Of a DNA stretch of 64,000 bases, positions 31,624 through 46,445 are shown piece by piece. The stretch is from an uncultured Gammaproteobacteria bacterium. Its GTDB lineage: Bacteria > Patescibacteriota > Microgenomatia > UBA8517. Below the pieces are notes generated by a model. It saw nothing but the letters and a program-made list of their open reading frames with translations, was not told the DNA's origin and made no database searches. A program made the translations under genes and the position numbers. The stretch covers positions 24,521-88,520 of the forward strand of contig CAZTVZ010000001.1 in assembly GCA_964617045.1 (NCBI GenBank), in the 5' to 3' direction. The first letter of the stretch is position 1; each line of letters starts with the position of its first letter.

Positions 31624-32382
31624 ATGCCAGCCGCATATGACACATATGATTATCCATCTTATTGGGTGGGGAGAGAATATGAGCATAGATGTGAATTGAT
31701 AGCCGTAAAGGCTCTTCTTCAGAAAATTCCCCGGATAGATACCTTAATTGAAGTTGGAGCCGGATTCGGGAGGATTACTCCAGTATACAAATACAGAGCG
31801 AAAAAAATATTTCTCACTGACCCGTCGGGAAAATTGTTAAGCCTTGCTCGGGATTCATTTAAAAGAAAAGGGTTATATTTCGTACATTCGAGGCTGGAAA
31901 GGTTGGATAAAAAAATCAAAAGAAGATCCGCTGATCTGATAATTATGGTTCGAGTTCTCCACCACATAAAGGATGTCGACCAGGCATTTAAGATTCTGTC
32001 CAAACTAACAAAAAAAGGCGGTTATTTAATATTGGAATTTGCCAACAAGAGCAATTTTAAAAACATGGTTAAAGAGTTTTTAAGGGGGAATTTTGTATTT
32101 CCAATGGAAATTGATACGGTTGATAAAAGAAGCAAAAAGAATATTAAGAAAAATACTATTCCTTTTAACAATTATCACGTTGATTACATCAAAGACAGAC
32201 TGTCTGAAGCAGGGTACAAAATAATTGAAAAACGCTCTGTATCGAACATTAGAAACTCGTTTGTGAAAAACTTGTTTCCAACCAGTTTTTTTCTTTCTCT
32301 TGCCAACCTTGTTCAGCCTTTACTGGGATACATAAACTTTGGTCCATCAATATTTATATTGGCCAAAAAGATAGAGGAATAG
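31624..32382 (+). CDS. Class I SAM-dependent methyltransferase
   Basis: Motif I LIEVGAGFGRIT, acidic motif II FLTDPS. Confidence 0.7.
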   Translation: MPAAYDTYDYPSYWVGREYEHRCELIAVKALLQKIPRIDTLIEVGAGFGRITPVYKYRAKKIFLTDPSGKLLSLARDSFKRKGLYFVHSRLERLDKKIKRRSADLIIMVRVLHHIKDVDQAFKILSKLTKKGGYLILEFANKSNFKNMVKEFLRGNFVFPMEIDTVDKRSKKNIKKNTIPFNNYHVDYIKDRLSEAGYKIIEKRSVSNIRNSFVKNLFPTSFFLSLANLVQPLLGYINFGPSIFILAKKIEE

Positions 32383-32473: not shown

Positions 32474-32500
32474 GGGGCCCCCGCAAGGGGGCTCCTTTTT
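32474..32500 (+). terminator. Rho-independent terminator (9-bp GC-rich stem, GCAA tetraloop, T5)
   Basis: GGGGCCCCC-GCAA-GGGGGCTCC followed by TTTTT. Confidence 0.8.
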
Positions 32501-37429: not shown

Positions 37430-37927
37430 ATGAATCGTAAACTGCTCATTGTAATTGCAATCGTAATTCTTGTTATTGTTGCCCTGCTTTCGATAAAAAT
37501 ATTTTTTCCTGAAAACAATTTCGTTGATAAAGGAATTTACTGGATAAGTGGAACTGATCAATCAAATCAAAGTCAAAGTATCTTTAACATCAACCAGAAT
37601 AATGCAAAAATGCGCACTTCTGATGGAAGTATAAAATTAACGTCTCCCGCTCCAAACTCTAAGGTTAAACCCGGATTTGTTGTTTCCGGAACTGCAAGAG
37701 TAGCTGAGAACATAATAAGCTGGAAATTAATTTCAAGCGAAAACGAGATTCTCGGACAAGGATATGTTTCTGTTGAAGTTAATGAAGAAATTAATGTTTC
37801 ACTATTCGATTTTCAAGCTATTTATCCAGAAGGGACAAATGGAAATGGATTCTTGGAAATATTTGACTACTCTCTGAAAGATGGATCTTTATACGAAAAA
37901 ATTCAGATTCCCCTCATATTCGATTAA
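37430..37927 (+). CDS. Membrane-anchored extracytoplasmic protein, Ig-like (Gmad2-like) domain
   Basis: N-terminal TM, Asn/Gln-rich linker, beta-rich C-terminal domain. Confidence 0.4.
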   Translation: MNRKLLIVIAIVILVIVALLSIKIFFPENNFVDKGIYWISGTDQSNQSQSIFNINQNNAKMRTSDGSIKLTSPAPNSKVKPGFVVSGTARVAENIISWKLISSENEILGQGYVSVEVNEEINVSLFDFQAIYPEGTNGNGFLEIFDYSLKDGSLYEKIQIPLIFD

Positions 37928-37957
37928 CATCTCTCCATAAATGAGTTAAAATAAGCC

Positions 37958-39715
37958 ATGAGTAACGAACTTGAGCATTTGAGACATTCTACGGCACACT
38001 TGCTTGCTGCAGCCGTAACTTCGTTGTGGCCTAACGCCAAACCAACAATCGGACCCGTTATCGAACATGGTTTCTATTACGATTTTGACATGGGAGATGA
38101 AAAGATTACCAATGGGGATTTACCAAAGATTGAAGAAAAAATGAGAGAAATTATCTCTTCATGGAAGTCTATCGATGGGGAAGAGATCTCTGTCGAAAAA
38201 GCCAAAGACATTTTCAAAGACAATGAATACAAAATTGAATTGATTGAAGAATTTGAATCTGAAAAACTACCAATAACAATATACAAGTCAGGTGATTTTA
38301 TTGATTTATGCAGAGGGGGTCATGTTGATAATCCCCAGGAAATTAAACATTTTAAACTCATGTCTGTAGCCGGAGCGTATTGGAGAGGAAACGAGAAAAA
38401 CAAAATGCTTACCCGTATTTATGGAGTTTCCTTTTCAAGTAACGATGACTTGGAAAATCACTTACAAAGTCTGGAAGAAGCATCCGAATTTGATCACCGA
38501 AAAATTGGCAAGGATCTTAATTTATTTGTCTTTTCTGACATTATCGGCAAAGGTCTTCCCATGCTTACACCTCAAGGAGCGACAATCAGAAGAGTTTTGG
38601 AAAGATTTATTGTTGATGAAGAAATTAGAAGAGGATATCAACATGTTTACACCCCTCCTCTTGCAAAAACCGAACTATACAAAAAATCGGGACATTATCC
38701 TTATTACAAAAACACAATGTATCCTGTTATGAAAGTCGACGAGGAGGAGCTTATTCTTAGGCCCATGACGTGTCCTCATCACTTTATGCTCTATAAATCC
38801 GACTTACATAGCTACAAAGAACTTCCTTTAAGGATTGCCGAGATAGCTCCACAATTTAGATACGAAAAAAGTGGAGAGCTTACCGGACTTATAAGAGTAA
38901 GGATGTTCCATCTTGCCGATGCCCATATCTTTACATCACAAGAACAAGCCAAAGATGAAATAAAAAATGTTTTGGAACTTATTGATTTTGTAAATTCCAA
39001 AATGGGTCTCAAAAAGGGTGAAGATTATCGTTACAGGCTTTCTTTGGGTGATCGATCGGACAAAAACGAAAAATATTACAAGGATGATGAAGCTTGGGAA
39101 TATGCCGAAAATGTATTAAGGGAAGTATTAAGTGAATCCGATGTGCCATCCTTTGAAGCAAAAGGAGAAGCCGCATTTTACGGTCCGAAAATTGACGTTC
39201 AGGTAAAAAAGATAACTGGAAAGGAAGAAACAGCATTTACGGTACAGTATGACTTTGTAATGCCAAAGCGATTTGATCTTAAATATACCTCTGAAGACGG
39301 TAGCGAAAAGGAAGTTGTTGTTATCCATAGGGCCTCGATAGGTTGTCTGGAAAGAACAATTGCCTTCTTGCTCGAAAAATATCATGGAGCACTCCCTCTA
39401 TGGATGTCTCCAACACAAGTAGCCATTTTACCGATATCTGAAAAGCATACCAAGTATGCAATCCTTGTAAAGGAAAAGTTGGATGAAGTCGGTATTCGAT
39501 CTTTCTTTGACGACAGAAGCGAAACTTTACAAGCTAAAATAAGATCGGCGCAAATGAAAAAAATACCCTACATGTTAGTATTGGGTGACAGGGAGATGGA
39601 AGCACAAAAAGTTGCACCCAGGCACAGAATAAAAGGAAATCTGGATACAATGTCTATTGAAGAATTTGTGACTAAAATTGACAAGGAAAATAAGGAGATG
39701 TTGATAGAGGAATGA
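37958..39715 (+). CDS. thrS: Threonyl-tRNA synthetase (no N-terminal TGS domain)
   Basis: Editing-domain HxxxH (HSTAHLLAAAV), class II motifs (HRKIGKDLNLF; RPMTCPHH), C-terminal anticodon-binding domain. Confidence 0.95.
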   Translation: MSNELEHLRHSTAHLLAAAVTSLWPNAKPTIGPVIEHGFYYDFDMGDEKITNGDLPKIEEKMREIISSWKSIDGEEISVEKAKDIFKDNEYKIELIEEFESEKLPITIYKSGDFIDLCRGGHVDNPQEIKHFKLMSVAGAYWRGNEKNKMLTRIYGVSFSSNDDLENHLQSLEEASEFDHRKIGKDLNLFVFSDIIGKGLPMLTPQGATIRRVLERFIVDEEIRRGYQHVYTPPLAKTELYKKSGHYPYYKNTMYPVMKVDEEELILRPMTCPHHFMLYKSDLHSYKELPLRIAEIAPQFRYEKSGELTGLIRVRMFHLADAHIFTSQEQAKDEIKNVLELIDFVNSKMGLKKGEDYRYRLSLGDRSDKNEKYYKDDEAWEYAENVLREVLSESDVPSFEAKGEAAFYGPKIDVQVKKITGKEETAFTVQYDFVMPKRFDLKYTSEDGSEKEVVVIHRASIGCLERTIAFLLEKYHGALPLWMSPTQVAILPISEKHTKYAILVKEKLDEVGIRSFFDDRSETLQAKIRSAQMKKIPYMLVLGDREMEAQKVAPRHRIKGNLDTMSIEEFVTKIDKENKEMLIEE

Positions 39716-39761
39716 TTCTCTTGAGCTCAAGGTCATATTCGGGTATAATTTACATCGTAAA

Positions 39762-40292
39762 TTGAAAACAGGAAACTTGAATTGGCGTGTAGACAGTGAA
39801 ATCCGTGCCCCGGAAGTCCGAGTAATCGACTCCGAAGGGAATCAACTGGGAGTAATGAAAACTCCAGATGCCATCAAGAAAGCCAACGAAACCGGGCTAA
39901 ATCTGGTCGAGATTGCACCAAATGCCGTTCCACCTGTAACTAAAATTATCGAAGTCGGTAAGTTTAAGTATCAGGAAGAAAAAAAGCAGAGGATGCAACA
40001 AAAAAAGGTAAAGGGAGGGGACGTAAAAGAAATAAGATTCTCTCCGTTTATCGCGGAAAACGACTTTAATACAAGAATGGAGCGTGTTAAGGAGTTTATC
40101 GACAACAGAGACAAGGTTAGGTTGGTTGTTGTTTTCAGAAGACAACAGTTGGGAAGCAAACAGTTTGGATATGATCTGTTTAAAAAGATTCTAACCGAAC
40201 TTGGAGACACGGTTTCCGTTGACATGGAACCCAAGTTTCTTGGAAAGAATTTAATAATGGGAATATCCCCATTAAGCAAGAAAAATGCCTAA
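39762..40292 (+). CDS. infC: Translation initiation factor IF-3
   Basis: [20 protein letters not shown]..., C-terminal domain [21 protein letters not shown]. Non-ATG (TTG) start; in-frame ATA at 39735 is an alternative. Confidence 0.85.
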
Positions 40293-40479
40293 ATCAAAAA
40301 CAAGAAAATCAGTTATAAGAAGATTCAAAGTCACACCTACAGGAAAGGTGCTACACAGACATGCTTTCAGAAGACATTTGAAAGCCAATAAAACCAAAAA
40401 ACAACTTGGCAATCTTAAAAGAGTTGCCGAGATGAAAGGCCAATTTGCTAAAAGAATAAGAAAGGCATTGGGAAAATAA
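40285..40479 (+). CDS. rpmI: 50S ribosomal protein L35
   Basis: [22 protein letters not shown]... Confidence 0.9.
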
Positions 40480-40480
40480 A

Positions 40481-40822
40481 ATGGCAAGAGTAAAATCACC
40501 ATCAGCAATTAAACACAGAAAAATTCTTAAACAGGTTAAGGGTTTTAAGCAAAGCAGGAGAAAGAGAATCCAAACAGCCATGGAGGCAAGACTTCATTCA
40601 ATGCAGTATGCATATGAAGGAAGAAAACTCAAGAAAAGAGACTTGAGAGCCTTATGGATTATTAGAATAAATGCTGCAGTCAGAAAGTTTGATCTATCAT
40701 ATTCTAAATTTATCAAGCTACTTAAAGAGTCCAAAGTTGAAATCGATAGGAAAATATTGTCTGATATTGCCGCCAAGGACCCATCTACTTTCGAAAAAGT
40801 AGTTAATTCAGTAAAGAAATGA
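40481..40822 (+). CDS. rplT: 50S ribosomal protein L20
   Basis: [22 protein letters not shown]... Confidence 0.95.
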
Positions 40823-40910
40823 TAACCTTTTTCTCCGGACTTAAATTCTTTAGAATAGAATAAGTTTGTGGAGAAATAATTTTATTAGCTCTCCACAGGA
40901 GAGCTTTTTT
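40819..40910 (+). promoter_or_regulatory. pheST transcription attenuator: 14-codon Phe-rich leader peptide plus alternative antiterminator/terminator hairpins
   Basis: Leader ORF 40819-40863 ([14 protein letters not shown], four Phe codons) starts inside the rplT stop (aATGA). Region 1 TTTCTCC (40830-36) pairs with region 2 GGAGAAA (40870-76). Antiterminator TGTGGAGA (40867-74) pairs with TCTCCACA (40890-97). Terminator GCTCTCC-ACA-GGAGAGC (40888-40904) plus TTTTTT (40905-10). pheS ATG at 40916. Confidence 0.65.
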
Positions 40911-40915
40911 CGTAT

Positions 40916-41941
40916 ATGAGAGAAGAATTAATAAATATTAAAAATGAGGCAATGGCTCAAATTATGGAAGCAAAGTCTTCCCAGGAGCTGGAAACATTAA
41001 GGATCAACTATCTCGGAAGAAACGGGAAGATAAATGAAATACTTAAAAATATTAAGGATGTTAAACCTGAAGATAGAGTAGAGATAGGCAAACTTGTTAA
41101 TGAAGTAAAAAATACTATATCGCTTCTTCTCGCAGAGCAAGATAATAAATTCACCGAAAGCGTAAGGGATTGGTTCGACACATCGGTGCCCGGTATCAAA
41201 CCCAAAATTGGAAAAATCCATTTGGTAACAAAAGCAATTAGAGAAATATCTAAATTATTTGAGGATATTGGATTCGTAAGATCCCGATACCCGGAGGTTG
41301 AATGGGATTATTTTGCTTTTTCTGCATTAAACATGCCCAAAGAACATGCGGCCAGGGACGAATGGGAAACTTTTTTTGTGGATGTTAAGGAAAATCCAAA
41401 ATACGGAAAGATGGTTTTAACTCCCCACACATCTTCCGGACAAATCAGGGAAATGTTTAGAGTAAAAAAACCTCCGATAAGAATGATAAACATTGCAAAA
41501 ACTTACAGAAGGCAACTGGACGTGTCTCATAACCAAATGTTCCATCAATTTGAAGGGCTTGTCGTTGACGAAGGAATCAACATAACCCACCTTAAAGGGA
41601 CACTGGATTATTTTGCCAAGAACTTTTTTGGTGAAAAAAGAACTACGCGACTTAGACCTTATCATTTCCAATTTACCGAACCGTCATTTGAAGTTGATAT
41701 CTCCTGCGGACTATGTGACGGAAAGGGGTGCAAATTTTGCAAATCCGGTTGGCTGGAGCTTGGTGGCGCTGGTATGGTTCACCCTAATGTTTTAAAAGAA
41801 TGCGGAATTGACCCAAACAAATACTCGGGTTTTGCATTTGGTTGGGGAGTGGAAAGAACCTTTATGATGAAATCGGGGCTTAAGATCGATGATATAAGAA
41901 AATTATATGGTGCTGATATTAGATTCCTAAAACAATTTTAA
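40916..41941 (+). CDS. pheS: Phenylalanyl-tRNA synthetase alpha subunit
   Basis: Class II motifs FQFTEPSFEVD, GWLELGGAGMVHPNVL. Confidence 0.95.
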   Translation: MREELINIKNEAMAQIMEAKSSQELETLRINYLGRNGKINEILKNIKDVKPEDRVEIGKLVNEVKNTISLLLAEQDNKFTESVRDWFDTSVPGIKPKIGKIHLVTKAIREISKLFEDIGFVRSRYPEVEWDYFAFSALNMPKEHAARDEWETFFVDVKENPKYGKMVLTPHTSSGQIREMFRVKKPPIRMINIAKTYRRQLDVSHNQMFHQFEGLVVDEGINITHLKGTLDYFAKNFFGEKRTTRLRPYHFQFTEPSFEVDISCGLCDGKGCKFCKSGWLELGGAGMVHPNVLKECGIDPNKYSGFAFGWGVERTFMMKSGLKIDDIRKLYGADIRFLKQF

Positions 41942-41942
41942 T

Positions 41943-43886
41943 ATGGACATAAAAATTCCTGACAAATGGTTAAGAGAGCATCTTGAAACAAACGCCAAGC
42001 CGGATGATATTGCAAGATGTTTGTCTCTATGCGGCCCTTCTGTAGAAAAGGTTGATGAAACAAAACATGGAATTGTATATAACATTGAAGTTACGGGGAA
42101 TAGAATTGATTCAGCGTCCGTATATGGAATAGCAAGAGAGGCGGCTGTAATACTTCCCAGATTTGGTTACAAAGCTAAACTTAAACCTCTTCCTAAAATA
42201 AAGATAAAGACATCTAAAAAAGTAGATTATCTTACCACTATTGTAAACTCCAGACTTTGCCCAAGGTTTAGCATGATACTAATTAAGGACGTAAAAATAT
42301 CCGATTCGCCGCCTGATATGGTAGAAATGATTTCCGCTTGCGGTGGAAGGGGAATCAATAATGTCGTTGATATTAGCAACTACTTAATGTTTGAATACGG
42401 CCAACCCCTACACACATTCGATTACGACAAGATTAAGGATTCTTTGATGATGCTTAGAGAAAGCAAAAAGGGAGAAAGCATTTTTACTCTCGATGGAGTA
42501 AAACGAACTCTTCCCGGAGGAGATATGGTAATCGAAGACGGGTCGGGCAAGTTGATTGATCTTTGCGGAATCATGGGTGGTAAGCTGTCAGCAGTCGATA
42601 AAAACACAAAAAATGTACTTATATATGTACAGTCATATAATCCATCCTATGTAAGGAGGACTTCCATGTCTCTAGCCCACAGAACTGATGCTTCTGTGTT
42701 GTTTGAAAAAGGACTTAATCCCGAATCGGTTACTCTAACCATTCAGGAATCCATTAGATTATTTGAAAAGTTTACTGGCGGTAAAGCAGATCCTAGTATT
42801 CTTGATGTTTATCCTAATCCGTGGAAAGCAAAATCGATAAGACTTAGGTTTGATAAGGTGCAAAAAGTACTCGGAATTGATATTGAAGAAAGACAGATTA
42901 AATCAATTTTAGAAAGCCTAGGATTTAGCATTTCGGGTAGTAATCCCATGGATGTAAAAATTCCTTCGTACCGTGATAACGATATATCTATCGAAGAAGA
43001 TTTGATTGAGGAAATTGCCAGAATTTACGGTTACCATAATATCTCCAGTCAGTTAATGCATACTGCAATACCCACAGAAAATCGAAATGGCATATTTGCT
43101 TTTGAGAATTATGTAAAGGATATTATTAAAGGGTACGGTGGAATTGAGGTATACACATTAACTTTAGTTTCCGAAAAGGATGTTGTTGGTAAAGCATACA
43201 AACTCAAAAATCCTCTTGGTAAAGACGCTGAATACTTAAGAACTTCAATGTTGCCCTCTTTGATGTTGGCAAAAAAAGAAAACCGTAATATTAATGACGA
43301 GTATCACTTGTTTGAAATTTCAAATATTTATTTACCTGTTGAAAGCGAACTGCCTCAAGAAAAATCTGTTCTTGCCGGAATAATTGAAAATTCTGAATAC
43401 CGTCACGCAAAGGGAATTATCGAAGCCTTACTTACAGAATTAAATATTTCATACGAATTCATTGAGGAAGAAATGCCGCTATTTGCACCTGGTATGGGTT
43501 TAAAAATAATGTGCGGAAAAGAAAAACTAGGTATTTTCGGTATAACCGAGCAAGGTGACTTCTATTACGAGTTTGACACTAAAACATTATTTAACAATTA
43601 TTCGCTTGTTGGAAAATATTCACCGAACTCAAAGTTCCCATCACAGATTGAGGATATTACTTTTACCTTACCGGAAAAAACAAGGATCGGTGATGTCATT
43701 ACTCAAATATCTCAACGCGCAAAAGAAATTGTTTCAGTTGTACTAAAAGAAGTATACGAAAACTCGTTTACGTTTAGAGTCGAATACCAGAGCATGGAAA
43801 AAACTTTGGAAAACAAAGATGTTGAAAAAATCAGAAGCAATATCATATCAGCAATAGAAAAAAAGTTCGGTGGCAAAGTAAAATAA
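41943..43886 (+). CDS. pheT: Phenylalanyl-tRNA synthetase beta subunit (short, no N-terminal tRNA-binding domain)
   Basis: B3/B4, B5 and C-terminal catalytic-like/anticodon-binding modules. 647 aa. Confidence 0.9.
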   Translation: MDIKIPDKWLREHLETNAKPDDIARCLSLCGPSVEKVDETKHGIVYNIEVTGNRIDSASVYGIAREAAVILPRFGYKAKLKPLPKIKIKTSKKVDYLTTIVNSRLCPRFSMILIKDVKISDSPPDMVEMISACGGRGINNVVDISNYLMFEYGQPLHTFDYDKIKDSLMMLRESKKGESIFTLDGVKRTLPGGDMVIEDGSGKLIDLCGIMGGKLSAVDKNTKNVLIYVQSYNPSYVRRTSMSLAHRTDASVLFEKGLNPESVTLTIQESIRLFEKFTGGKADPSILDVYPNPWKAKSIRLRFDKVQKVLGIDIEERQIKSILESLGFSISGSNPMDVKIPSYRDNDISIEEDLIEEIARIYGYHNISSQLMHTAIPTENRNGIFAFENYVKDIIKGYGGIEVYTLTLVSEKDVVGKAYKLKNPLGKDAEYLRTSMLPSLMLAKKENRNINDEYHLFEISNIYLPVESELPQEKSVLAGIIENSEYRHAKGIIEALLTELNISYEFIEEEMPLFAPGMGLKIMCGKEKLGIFGITEQGDFYYEFDTKTLFNNYSLVGKYSPNSKFPSQIEDITFTLPEKTRIGDVITQISQRAKEIVSVVLKEVYENSFTFRVEYQSMEKTLENKDVEKIRSNIISAIEKKFGGKVK

Positions 43887-46445
43887 TTAAGGAGTGGGGG
43901 TAGGAGTTGGTGTAATATCCCATGCTACGTTAACACCAATTCTAATCATACTTTCAGCCTCATGGTTATCTTTATCCCATGCTTTTACTTTTAACTGATG
44001 TGCTCCATCACTAACCCCAGAAAAACTATGTTCAAAAGGTGGTCCGTCAAAACTTCTAACTTTACTATTGTCCAAATACAATTCGACTTTTGTTACATCT
44101 GATGTCGAATCTGCAAAAAACTTGGCTGTGAAATTATTGCCGAGGTTTGATGTCTGATCTGTCGGATTGGAAAAACCGGTGTTTAAGGGATTTTGAGTAC
44201 CACAATATTCGCTTGGAGGCTTATACCTGGAATCGGATTGGGTATTAATCCAATTCAGTATTCCTTCCTGCCATCTGTTTGGCTTACCCGCACCTGCCGT
44301 AGGATCTTCCTCTTTAAAGACAAAATATTCTTTCTCTTCATAGTCACCTCTGTTGATATCTGCAGGTGTGGCTAGTTTTCCGTCTTGTTTACAAACCTTG
44401 AGCTTTACGTGCACAGGATCGTTACCCGGCTCTGTGCCTTGAATAAACTTTTCAGTTCTTGCGGCAAACCCGTCGTGCGCTCGATATCCGGATACGGAAT
44501 CAACAGAAGCAGTTATTATCCTTCCTGGTGTTTCAAATCCAATGTTTGGTTTACCTGATAATGCCTCAACGGTTATTCTTCTCCAGATAGGGGATGCTCC
44601 CGAGATACCGGAGGCAACTGATTTCATCGGAGAGTTGTCGTTGTTTCCAACCCAAACTCCAACAACAATCTGTGTGTTTCCACCTATTGCCCAGTTATCT
44701 CTGCGGTCATTGGTTGTACCGGTTTTAACACCCACCGTTCTTCCGGGAATATTAAGGAGTGAATTGGGTCCGAAGACTGTTTCTCTGGCTTTATTATCAG
44801 AGAGAATGTCGGCCATTAAATAAGCTTGTTCTTCAGTTAGAACTCTCTTTTTCTTTTCTGGTTTAACTTCTTCAAGTACTTTTCCGTCGGCATCTTCGAC
44901 CTTAAGTATCGCTGTGGGTTCAATCCGATAACCTTTGTTAAAGAATGCCGCATATGCAGCTGTTATCTCGGACAGCTTAACCTCACCACCACCCAGCGTT
45001 AACGACAACCCTACACGGCTTAACGTTTCCTGTGTTGGAGGTAGAGAATTTATACCAAGATCGTATGCAGTTTGAAGGGTATCCTTTATTCCTACAAGAG
45101 CGAGCATTTTAACAGCAGGTATGTTTAGAGAATTGCCCAATGCATATCTTAATTGAACCGGACCCCTGTATTTCCCGTCGTAATTAACTGGTTTGTAATC
45201 CGGTTGGCCCGCACCTCCGGGGAAGACAGTCTCGACATCCATAATTAAAGTCGATGGTGTGTATCCTTCTTTAAGTGCCGTTACATATGTAATTGGCTTA
45301 AAAGACGATCCGGGCTGTCTTAATGATTGAGTTACATTTACTTGCCCATCGTAATCATCGGCGGCAAAGTTTTTGGATCCAACCATTGCAAGAATTTCTC
45401 CTGTTTGAGGGTCGTATGCAATTGCTGCACCATTTGTAATATTTTGAGATTCGACTTTGGCAATTTCTTCTGAAACTATAGATTGTGCTTTTTCCTGCAA
45501 TTCCAAATCGAGAGTTGTTGTTACTTTTAAACCTCCTTGTTCTATCGCTGCTTCTCCGTACCTTTCCTCAAGTATTCCTTGTACATATTGGACAAAATGT
45601 GGTGCTTTGAAAGAAGCTCCTTTTGGTTGAAAAACAACCGTATCCAATTCACTTTTTGCCTGTTCTTCCTGTTCTTTCGTTATATAGTCATCCTCACGCA
45701 TTCTTCTTAAGACCTCTTGAGTTCTTCCGATATATGCCTTTGGATTACTGGAATAGGGAGAATAATAGGAGGGTCTTTGAGGCATTCCCGCAAGTATGGC
45801 CGACTCAACAAGTGTCAGATCTTTTGCACTTTTTCCAAAATAGGTTTCGGCTGCAGTTTCAACACCCCATGCCGTTCCTCCATAGGGAGCTTCGTTTAGG
45901 TACATTTGCAGTATTTCGTCTTTGGTATATTTTCTTTCTATTTGGACTGCCAAAATGAATTCTTTTGCTTTTCTTATCAATGATCGTTCGGATGTAAGCA
46001 GAACATTTTTAACAAGTTGCTGGGTAAGCGTTGATCCACCCTGAGCTCTTCCCGCAGTAAAAAGTCGGGTGAATCCACGAATTATTCCCAGTGGATCAAA
46101 ACCTTGATGTGAATAGAAATTTTTATCTTCTATCGCAATCGTTGCTTGTCTCAAATAAACGGGTATTTCTGTAAGTGGTATTGCAGTTCTTCTTTGGTCG
46201 ATAAAAATGTCGTATAAGACTTTTCCGTTACGATCAAGGATCTTGGTGGAAAAACCCTCTCTTCTAACTACATTGTCCGGAGTGGGAAGGTTAAAAGACA
46301 TTAAAGGAACAACAACAAATGAAGCGATAATTAGTACGATTACTCCGATAAAGCCGTACTTTGCTAATTTGAATATGAGTTGACTATTCTTAAATCCCGG
46401 TCTTCGTGCGATTATCCTTCGTCTTCTGTATTTATCCCTCCACAT
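43887..46445 (-). CDS. Class A penicillin-binding protein (PBP1A: GT51 transglycosylase + transpeptidase) with C-terminal beta-rich extension and PT repeat
   Basis: N-terminal TM. GT51 motifs (ATIAIEDKNFYSHQGFD; RAQGGSTLTQQ). Transpeptidase SxxK, SxN, KTG motifs. Confidence 0.9.
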   Translation of the reverse strand: MWRDKYRRRRIIARRPGFKNSQLIFKLAKYGFIGVIVLIIASFVVVPLMSFNLPTPDNVVRREGFSTKILDRNGKVLYDIFIDQRRTAIPLTEIPVYLRQATIAIEDKNFYSHQGFDPLGIIRGFTRLFTAGRAQGGSTLTQQLVKNVLLTSERSLIRKAKEFILAVQIERKYTKDEILQMYLNEAPYGGTAWGVETAAETYFGKSAKDLTLVESAILAGMPQRPSYYSPYSSNPKAYIGRTQEVLRRMREDDYITKEQEEQAKSELDTVVFQPKGASFKAPHFVQYVQGILEERYGEAAIEQGGLKVTTTLDLELQEKAQSIVSEEIAKVESQNITNGAAIAYDPQTGEILAMVGSKNFAADDYDGQVNVTQSLRQPGSSFKPITYVTALKEGYTPSTLIMDVETVFPGGAGQPDYKPVNYDGKYRGPVQLRYALGNSLNIPAVKMLALVGIKDTLQTAYDLGINSLPPTQETLSRVGLSLTLGGGEVKLSEITAAYAAFFNKGYRIEPTAILKVEDADGKVLEEVKPEKKKRVLTEEQAYLMADILSDNKARETVFGPNSLLNIPGRTVGVKTGTTNDRRDNWAIGGNTQIVVGVWVGNNDNSPMKSVASGISGASPIWRRITVEALSGKPNIGFETPGRIITASVDSVSGYRAHDGFAARTEKFIQGTEPGNDPVHVKLKVCKQDGKLATPADINRGDYEEKEYFVFKEEDPTAGAGKPNRWQEGILNWINTQSDSRYKPPSEYCGTQNPLNTGFSNPTDQTSNLGNNFTAKFFADSTSDVTKVELYLDNSKVRSFDGPPFEHSFSGVSDGAHQLKVKAWDKDNHEAESMIRIGVNVAWDITPTPTPTP

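Follow-up and report, generated by a model that had tools for sequence, protein, structure and literature searches.

The stretch of DNA considered here, a window of 64,000 nucleotides from contig CAZTVZ010000001.1 (positions 24,521 to 88,520, forward strand) of the GenBank assembly GCA_964617045.1, carries the genes thrS, infC, rpmI, rplT, pheS and pheT in this order on its plus strand. The stop codon of rplT and the start codon of pheS are separated by a spacer of 93 nt, which contains the candidate element described below, a putative transcription attenuator with a phenylalanine-rich leader peptide. The genes were assigned from the listing of open reading frames (ORFs) and from Pfam matches, those of pheST being tRNA-synt_2d, Phe_tRNA-synt_N, B3_4, B5 and FDX-ACB (Table 1). 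The genome is AT-rich (GC 0.36-0.40), and the top matches of PheS, at no more than 72-73% identity, belong to metagenome-assembled genomes (MAGs) of Patescibacteria, namely Woesebacteria, Microgenomates, Amesbacteria and Gottesmanbacteria.

The rplT-pheS spacer and its alternative pairings

The spacer is entered by a short ORF of 14 codons whose ATG overlaps the rplT stop codon (aATGa). Four of these codons specify phenylalanine (Phe) and are arranged in two pairs, TTT TTC (40828-33) and TTC TTT (40846-51); a short ORF rich in the codon that matches the regulated genes is thus found directly 5' of pheST. An ORF of at least eight codons including at least four Phe codons was obtained in only 0.9% of the dinucleotide shuffles of the window spacer (P ~0.009). 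From the ATGA overlap and from the related loci, in 16 of 23 of which the leader starts at most 7 nt from the rplT stop codon, we infer that the leader is translated, and its translation is probably coupled to the termination of rplT translation.

Three overlapping pairings can be drawn between four segments of the spacer. The sequence TTTCTCC (40830-36) is exactly complementary to GGAGAAA (40870-76), which gives rise to the 1:2 hairpin, a putative anti-antiterminator whose segment 1 has bases in common with the first Phe pair. The predicted antiterminator consists of TGTGGAGA (40867-74), which is exactly complementary over 8 bp to TCTCCACA (40890-97) and thereby shares bases with the 5' arm of the terminator. 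The latter is formed by AGCTCTCC and GGAGAGCT (40887-94 and 40898-905), a stem of 8 bp including five G-C pairs with a loop of 3 nt, and precedes pheS, the ATG of which lies 10 nt past the stem and 5 nt past the end of the T-run (40910). Since these 10 nt leave no room for a promoter, the expression of pheST would depend on read-through. Segment 2 begins 3 nt past the leader stop codon and would therefore be masked by a terminating ribosome; the stop codon is hence placed in such a way that a terminating but not a stalled ribosome covers this segment. The original prediction, which had been made from the sequence and its ORFs, had described the 14-codon ORF with two Phe-Phe pairs starting within the rplT stop codon, the pairing of regions 1 and 2 and the antiterminator, and all their coordinates hold in the sequence. 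It had also named a terminator followed by a T-run, which is present, while the span given for it (40888-904) turned out to be one base short at each end, the stem extending from 40887 to 40905.

The region of 97 nt which comprises the leader and the spacer folds at -27.4 kcal/mol as compared to -15.4 +/- 2.7 kcal/mol in dinucleotide shuffles (z = -4.4; none of 200 shuffles as good). In the minimum free energy (MFE) fold of the free RNA the 1:2 hairpin is combined with the terminator. Taken as lone hairpins the three structures are nearly isoenergetic (1:2, -14.2 kcal/mol; 2:3, -13.1 kcal/mol; 3:4, -12.4 kcal/mol), and the 2:3 duplex, at -12.7 kcal/mol versus -5.6 +/- 1.8 kcal/mol in shuffles, was equalled by only one of 200 shuffles. 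Strong terminator-like hairpins between genes number only two to three in the whole 64-kb window and, because they are this rare, the terminator in front of pheS does not seem to belong to a common background.

In order to mimic a ribosome on the leader, its footprint of about 30 nt was masked before folding. The 1:2 hairpin plus terminator is obtained if no ribosome is present and the terminator if the ribosome is positioned at the leader stop codon. A stall at the second Phe pair results in an extended antiterminator as the MFE structure, the complete transcript included, and a stall at the first Phe pair results in the antiterminator at the point when segment 3 has just been made. The structures consequently switch as the stalling model predicts, and the geometry proposed at the outset, in which a ribosome stalled at the second Phe pair frees segment 2 and a ribosome at the stop codon gives rise to the terminator, is reproduced by the masked folds.

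Based on these statistics, the folding and the comparison with related loci given below, the element most probably (with a probability of roughly 0.8) represents a ribosome-mediated leader-peptide transcription attenuator which would sense charged tRNA-Phe and control the read-through from infC-rpmI-rplT into pheST. According to this model RNA polymerase would enter the spacer from rplT, and the ribosome which ends L20 at UGA would restart on the overlapping AUG of the leader. With ample Phe-tRNA it would run to the leader stop codon, where its footprint would lie over segment 2, so that the 3:4 terminator could form and transcription would end 10 nt before pheS. Without any ribosome on the leader the 1:2 hairpin would form and the terminator with it. 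If Phe-tRNA is scarce the ribosome would stall at either of the two Phe pairs, segment 1 would be covered or held away from segment 2, and segments 2 and 3 would pair before segment 4 is made; in consequence no terminator would arise and pheST would be transcribed. Reinitiation at the AUGA overlap, the actual termination or read-through and the response to Phe are steps which we infer from the sequence and the modelled folds.

Table 1. Coordinates of the genes and RNA segments in the region from thrS to pheT of the window, and related loci carrying a Phe-containing tail on ribosomal protein L20.
Feature	Position	Strand	Remarks
thrS	37958-39715	+	ORF listing and Pfam
infC	39762-40292	+	ORF listing and Pfam
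rpmI	40285-40479	+	ORF listing and Pfam
rplT (ribosomal protein L20)	40481-40822	+	ORF listing; Pfam Ribosomal_L20, E = 2e-34; stop TGA 40820-22
Leader ORF, 14 codons	40819-40863	+	ATG 40819-21, stop TAA 40861-63
Segment 1 (UUUCUCCG)	40830-40837	+	In and just 3' of the first Phe pair; pairs with segment 2
Full 1:2 hairpin (anti-antiterminator)	40830-40876	+	MFE fold
CTTTAGAAT block	40848-40856	+	Apical part of the 1:2 hairpin; -10-like TAGAAT at 40851-56; clade alignment A1
Segment 2 (UGUGGAGAAA)	40867-40876	+	Alternative partners segment 1 or segment 3
Segment 3 (AGCUCUCCACA)	40887-40897	+	Antiterminator 3' arm 40890-97; terminator 5' arm 40887-94
Segment 4 (GGAGAGCU)	40898-40905	+	Terminator 3' arm, followed by T-run to 40910; terminator scan
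pheS	40916-41941	+	Pfam
pheT	41943-43886	+	ORF listing and Pfam
L20-tail loci (related loci)			L004, L008, L009, L013, L018, L019, L021, L099, L102, L105, L106, L109, L112, L119, L126, L141, L158

Leader, antiterminator and L20 tail in related loci

The comparison comprised 160 related loci, all of them from Patescibacteria/Microgenomates-type MAGs or metagenome contigs. In 97 of these loci rplT is located directly 5' of pheS, which yielded 59 distinct spacers of 40-400 nt, and the 46 distinct spacers with a terminator-like hairpin served as the set for the leader and antiterminator counts. An ORF of at least eight codons with at least three Phe codons was detected 5' of the terminator in 23 of the 46 spacers (for instance MIFFFSTSLSFRIV, MKLFTFTSFFFRI, MRLFFFTSFYFRIS, MSYILYFFSTSFFFTMK, MNFMNLVIFFNFNLE, MKHIAKFFEFTFL, MTKNQFFAFFFAASKS and MKIQNIFFAFFTS). 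Dinucleotide shuffles contained 2.44 such ORFs on average (sd 1.46, maximum 8), and none of 500 rounds reached 23. The other 19 amino acids showed no comparable enrichment, Ser alone being marginally raised (6 loci versus 1.6 expected). Phe accounts for 31% of the leader residues as compared to 4.8% in the proteins encoded in the window.

The antiterminator arm was significant in 36 of the 46 spacers (at most 10 of 200 shuffles as good; mean z = -3.05). It starts between -5 and +3 nt from the leader stop codon in nearly all loci with a leader, and no more than about 5 nt from the rplT stop codon in the loci without one, while the last Phe codon of the leader is found two to six codons (mode four) 5' of the stop. 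From this distance and the position of the arm it follows that segment 2 would be hidden by a ribosome at the stop codon and left free by one stalled at the Phe codons. The stems themselves are wholly different between clades (CTCTCCAC, GCCCCGC, ACCTCCT, AAAACCTCC, CTCTCCCC), with the four-segment layout being kept. The comparison of rplT-pheS spacers which had been suggested as a check of the prediction thus recovered the Phe-rich mini-ORF, the alternative pairings and the stop codon geometry in spite of changing stem sequences.

Within the clade of the window (alignment A1, 11 sequences), 94% pairing is found for helix 2:3, with two compensatory pairs, versus 37-65% in slid controls. Helix 1:2 is 84% paired as compared to 35-51% in slid controls, with weak covariation. 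Since the core hardly varies, covariation within this clade is modest overall. A covariance model of the 1:2 hairpin plus the 3:4 terminator found a single site in the window (40809-40913, 86 bits) and 21 more matches in the related loci at E < 0.01. In the masked folds of 22 leader loci the terminator was intact in all 22 with the ribosome at the stop codon. If the transcripts ended short of segment 4, a stall at the last Phe codon led to sequestration of the terminator's 5' arm in 19 of the 22 loci, versus five of the 22 with a ribosome at the stop codon.

Furthermore, 17 loci lacking a separate leader possess a strong antiterminator arm at most 3 nt from the rplT stop codon (Table 1). Exactly these loci encode an extra C-terminal tail of L20 (..AGF.F....*), with examples such as ..KEAGFSFTSEK*, ..AGFFFTS* and ..KKFTSQ*. 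The last Phe codon of the tail is located five codons before the stop in 11 of the 17 loci, and in the masked folds a ribosome at the stop codon resulted in the terminator in 17 of 17 and a stall at the last Phe codon in sequestration of its 5' arm in 17 of 17. In this group of relatives the Phe-containing tail appears to replace the leader. At the nucleotide level, the tail of locus L019 (..TTCTTTACTTCC TAA CGG) agrees with the end of the leader that stands free in L025. Loci with a leader, with a tail, with a plain terminator and with a spacer of 9-10 nt are interleaved on a rough tree of PheS, which suggests that fusion of the leader with rplT, or its separation from it, occurred repeatedly.

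It is conceivable that the Phe sensor is tied to L20 as such, in that the leader of the window would be read only by ribosomes restarting at the rplT stop codon and the fused end of rplT in the sister group would itself be the leader peptide; we regard this as a tentative proposal and give it somewhat less than even odds. If it applies, the L20-fused variant would be an unusual case of the protein-coding 3' end of an essential gene doubling as a regulatory leader. Many of the tail loci (e.g. L009, L013, L102, L105, L106, L109, L112, L119) also carry a TAnAAT box 6-8 nt 5' of the pheS ATG, and in these relatives pheS may have a short-leader promoter of its own besides the read-through.

The spacer is not retained everywhere. 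In a clade near the window (L003, L012, L082-L084, L090, L092, L093, L104, L114) no more than 9-20 nt separate rplT from pheS, the spacer has been lost and neither leader nor terminator is present; the attenuator is therefore considered to be evolutionarily labile. In the Buchananbacteria-type loci (L039, L042, L052, L075, L150, L153) pheS does not adjoin rplT. A Phe run (..LEFFFLSYKKRI*) in front of pheS was considered as a leader in these loci and rejected as it is the C-terminal end of a longer reading frame; it is followed by a plain terminator and then by a TTGAC(T/G)-17-TATAAT promoter.

Competing explanations and other features of the window

Several observations weigh against the attenuator. 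In the window a stall at the first Phe pair leaves the terminator as the MFE structure of the full transcript, and among the relatives the terminator stays the MFE structure of the complete transcript in 17 of the 22 leader loci despite the stall. A purely thermodynamic switch works in the window and fails for most relatives, so that a kinetic switch has to be assumed, of the type known from classical attenuators. No Shine-Dalgarno sequence precedes the leader, the translation of which rests on the assumed reinitiation; this is no objection because ORFs of the window hardly use Shine-Dalgarno sequences anyway, few of the 54 long ones having one. The Phe codons of the leaders are more frequent in frame (97) than in the other two frames (34 and 37), a comparison that is biased by the preselection of ORFs with at least three Phe codons. 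As the loci are phylogenetically related, the counts given above overstate the number of independent observations. Finally, the attenuator model does not account for the conserved TAGAAT within the leader. Apart from the stems, no part of the leader is better conserved in the 11 members of alignment A1 than the CTTTAGAAT block which contains this motif. The block is kept as nucleotides, with the peptide varying at this place (FRI/FTM/FRL/FKT); it may form an apical loop element of the 1:2 hairpin or else serve in pausing.

The same block could have another meaning, TTTAGAAT (40848-56) being the -10 box of an internal pheST promoter with a start near 40863, whose transcripts would begin with segment 2 and be constitutively antiterminated. 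The conservation as nucleotides in the clade would agree with this, as would the TAnAAT motifs 5-12 nt before many starts in the genome. However, a convincing -35 box is missing (TTTTTC/TTCACC at the aligned positions), the promoter scan did not report the site, and the motif is absent from other leader clades that retain the Phe ORF and the switch. Since an internal promoter leaves the Phe enrichment and segment 1 unaccounted for and could coexist with an attenuator instead of replacing it, we consider this explanation decidedly unlikely. A switch that is coupled to translation without being specific for Phe, reporting via segment 2 the arrival of ribosomes at the stop codon and hence general or rplT translation, seems unlikely as well. 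It would fit the finding that the antiterminator arm abuts the stop codon in every class of loci, the leaderless ones included, and any slow-down of the ribosome would indeed expose segment 2. Yet Phe alone is enriched among the 20 amino acids, the genes under control are pheST, and in the leaderless loci L20 has a tail whose conserved Phe codons keep a constant distance to the stop.

It would be simpler to assume a plain intrinsic terminator of the infC-rpmI-rplT transcript and to ascribe the mini-ORF and the complementarities to chance in a T-rich spacer with repetitive GGAG/CTCC. TTT and TTC codons are common in a genome of such low GC content, and four relatives (L011, L016, L157, L159), which have neither a leader nor a tail, do possess plain terminators without an antiterminator arm. 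Against this stand the Phe-specific enrichment far above that in composition-matched shuffles, the significance of the antiterminator arm in 36 of the 46 loci together with its place at the stop codon, and an architecture that is conserved with different stems. Taking furthermore into account that an unconditional stop 10 nt before a promoterless pheS would silence an essential gene, a plain terminator is very improbable. Even less credence, hardly any, is given to a translational control in which the 3:4 hairpin near the pheS start occludes initiation and the 2:3 pairing frees it. The hairpin does end within the ribosome landing zone, 10 nt before the ATG, and local structure should matter where Shine-Dalgarno sequences are rarely used, but a canonical T-run follows the hairpin in the window and in the relatives, and in many of the latter the terminator is located 20-60 nt from the pheS ATG. 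An effect on translation is more likely to be additional than to be an alternative. The Phe-sensing attenuator thus remains the preferred interpretation of the spacer.

Some smaller candidates in and near the spacer were rejected. A small ORF extending from TTG 40866 to TGA 40919 (MWRNNFISSPQESFFRI), which crosses the terminator and shares an ATGA overlap with the pheS start, is not conserved in the clade and is attributed to chance. The GGAG in segment 4 is unlikely to be the Shine-Dalgarno sequence of pheS given its spacing of 14 nt and the scarce use of such sequences in this genome.

No further candidates for similar attenuators were found in the window. In front of thrS there is only a promoter-like spacer of 30 nt. 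A hairpin at 9474-93 was dismissed as it lies in a divergent promoter region and has a poor T-run; it precedes an ORF of 973 aa, for which a uvrA-like identity is assumed solely on its N-terminal sequence, without homology search. The sole other strong intrinsic terminator-like hairpin in the window is located at 32474-32495 (GGGGCCCCC gcaa GGGGGCTCC, followed by T5), 91 nt 3' of the ORF at 31624-32382.

Several genes of the window have a TAnAAT box that ends 5-12 nt 5' of the start codon, for example at 37924-37952 (thrS) and 39721-39749 (infC) and upstream of 57805(-), 35422, 46492 and 29249, which suggests leaderless mRNAs or mRNAs with a very short leader. An ORF of 852 aa (43887-46445, minus strand) is convergent with pheT, and the two stop codons abut without a spacer. 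Its product ends in a TPTPTPTP repeat and has, judged by eye and without family search, the look of a penicillin-binding protein/transglycosylase.

Comparison with known attenuators

Patescibacteria, also referred to as Candidate Phyla Radiation (CPR), are tiny, uncultured and metabolically dependent, and most amino acids are not made by them. To our knowledge, almost nothing has been established about their gene regulation. For such cells, sensing charged tRNA-Phe on the ribosome would be a sensible way of tuning an essential synthetase. Classical leader-peptide attenuation in this lineage would imply a working intrinsic termination and a tight coupling of transcription and translation. Represented by some 20 distinct examples and by a covariance model, the element is also recognisable for annotators, and a switch as compact as 93 nt might be suited to heterologous systems. 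A report of leader-peptide attenuation in CPR/Patescibacteria was not found in the literature, the coverage of which was incomplete, so that this is weak evidence of novelty. The initial view that the genomic context is unexpected is justified with respect to the taxon and to the compact, rplT-coupled form. It does not apply to the rplT-pheS junction, which is the classical context of pheM.

In E. coli, ribosome stalling at Phe codons chooses between the antiterminator and the terminator in the attenuation of pheST. The leader pheM of E. coli shares with the window the neighbours thrS-infC-rpmI-rplT-leader-pheS-pheT, the identical regulated genes and a Phe-rich leader of 14 codons. In contrast, rplT and pheS are about 450 nt apart in E. 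coli (122 nt to pheM and 283 nt from pheM to pheS) versus 93 nt in the window, and pheM has its own promoter and ribosome-binding site, whereas the leader ATG of the window overlaps the rplT stop codon in a patescibacterial host that makes almost no use of Shine-Dalgarno sequences. The pheST operon is a classical example of attenuation (Seliverstov et al. 2005, PMC1262725).

The Phe_leader model RF01859 (gathering score 55 bits) gave no match at E <= 10 in the window region 37500-42500, while E. coli pheM scored 75 bits as a positive control. Matches to RF00230 (T-box) and RF00558 (L20_leader) were likewise missing from this region, in which the Rfam scan returned noise only (E = 6-9). In 40 related loci searched at the gathering score nothing was found, including T-box, Phe_leader and L20_leader, which rules out a T-box or an L20_leader. 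The L20 leader, moreover, is located 5' of infC/rpmI, whereas the element of the window is located 3' of rplT. As there is no Rfam match, the window element is considered to be an independent compact analogue of pheM; judged from its sequence, it arose independently of the enterobacterial leader, at the identical gene junction.

The architecture resembles that of trpL in its four segments with three mutually exclusive hairpins, in the regulatory codons within or near segment 1, in a stop codon that lets the terminating ribosome mask segment 2 and in the default fold of the untranslated RNA, which is 1:2 plus terminator. In contrast to the window, trpL responds to another amino acid, controls biosynthetic genes rather than a synthetase, is longer and has its own promoter and ribosome-binding site.

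The T-box of pheS in Firmicutes likewise raises the synthetase at low charged tRNA by a choice between terminator and antiterminator. T-boxes bind uncharged tRNA directly without any ribosome and comprise about 200-300 nt with a conserved Stem I and T-box sequence. The spacer of 93 nt is too short for this.

Leader-peptide attenuators have also been predicted for trpS and leuS of Streptomyces (PMC1262725) and for hisS paralogues of Bacillus (PMC2965389). Like the window they combine a short ORF of cognate codons with a terminator in front of a synthetase gene in an unexpected phylum. They differ from it in the amino acids and phyla concerned and in being stand-alone 5' leaders which lack a coupling to the end, at its stop codon, of an upstream ribosomal protein gene. 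The mechanism itself is already known; what would be new here is an analogue of pheM that is compact and tied to rplT, and its occurrence in a phylum for which no regulation of this kind has been described.

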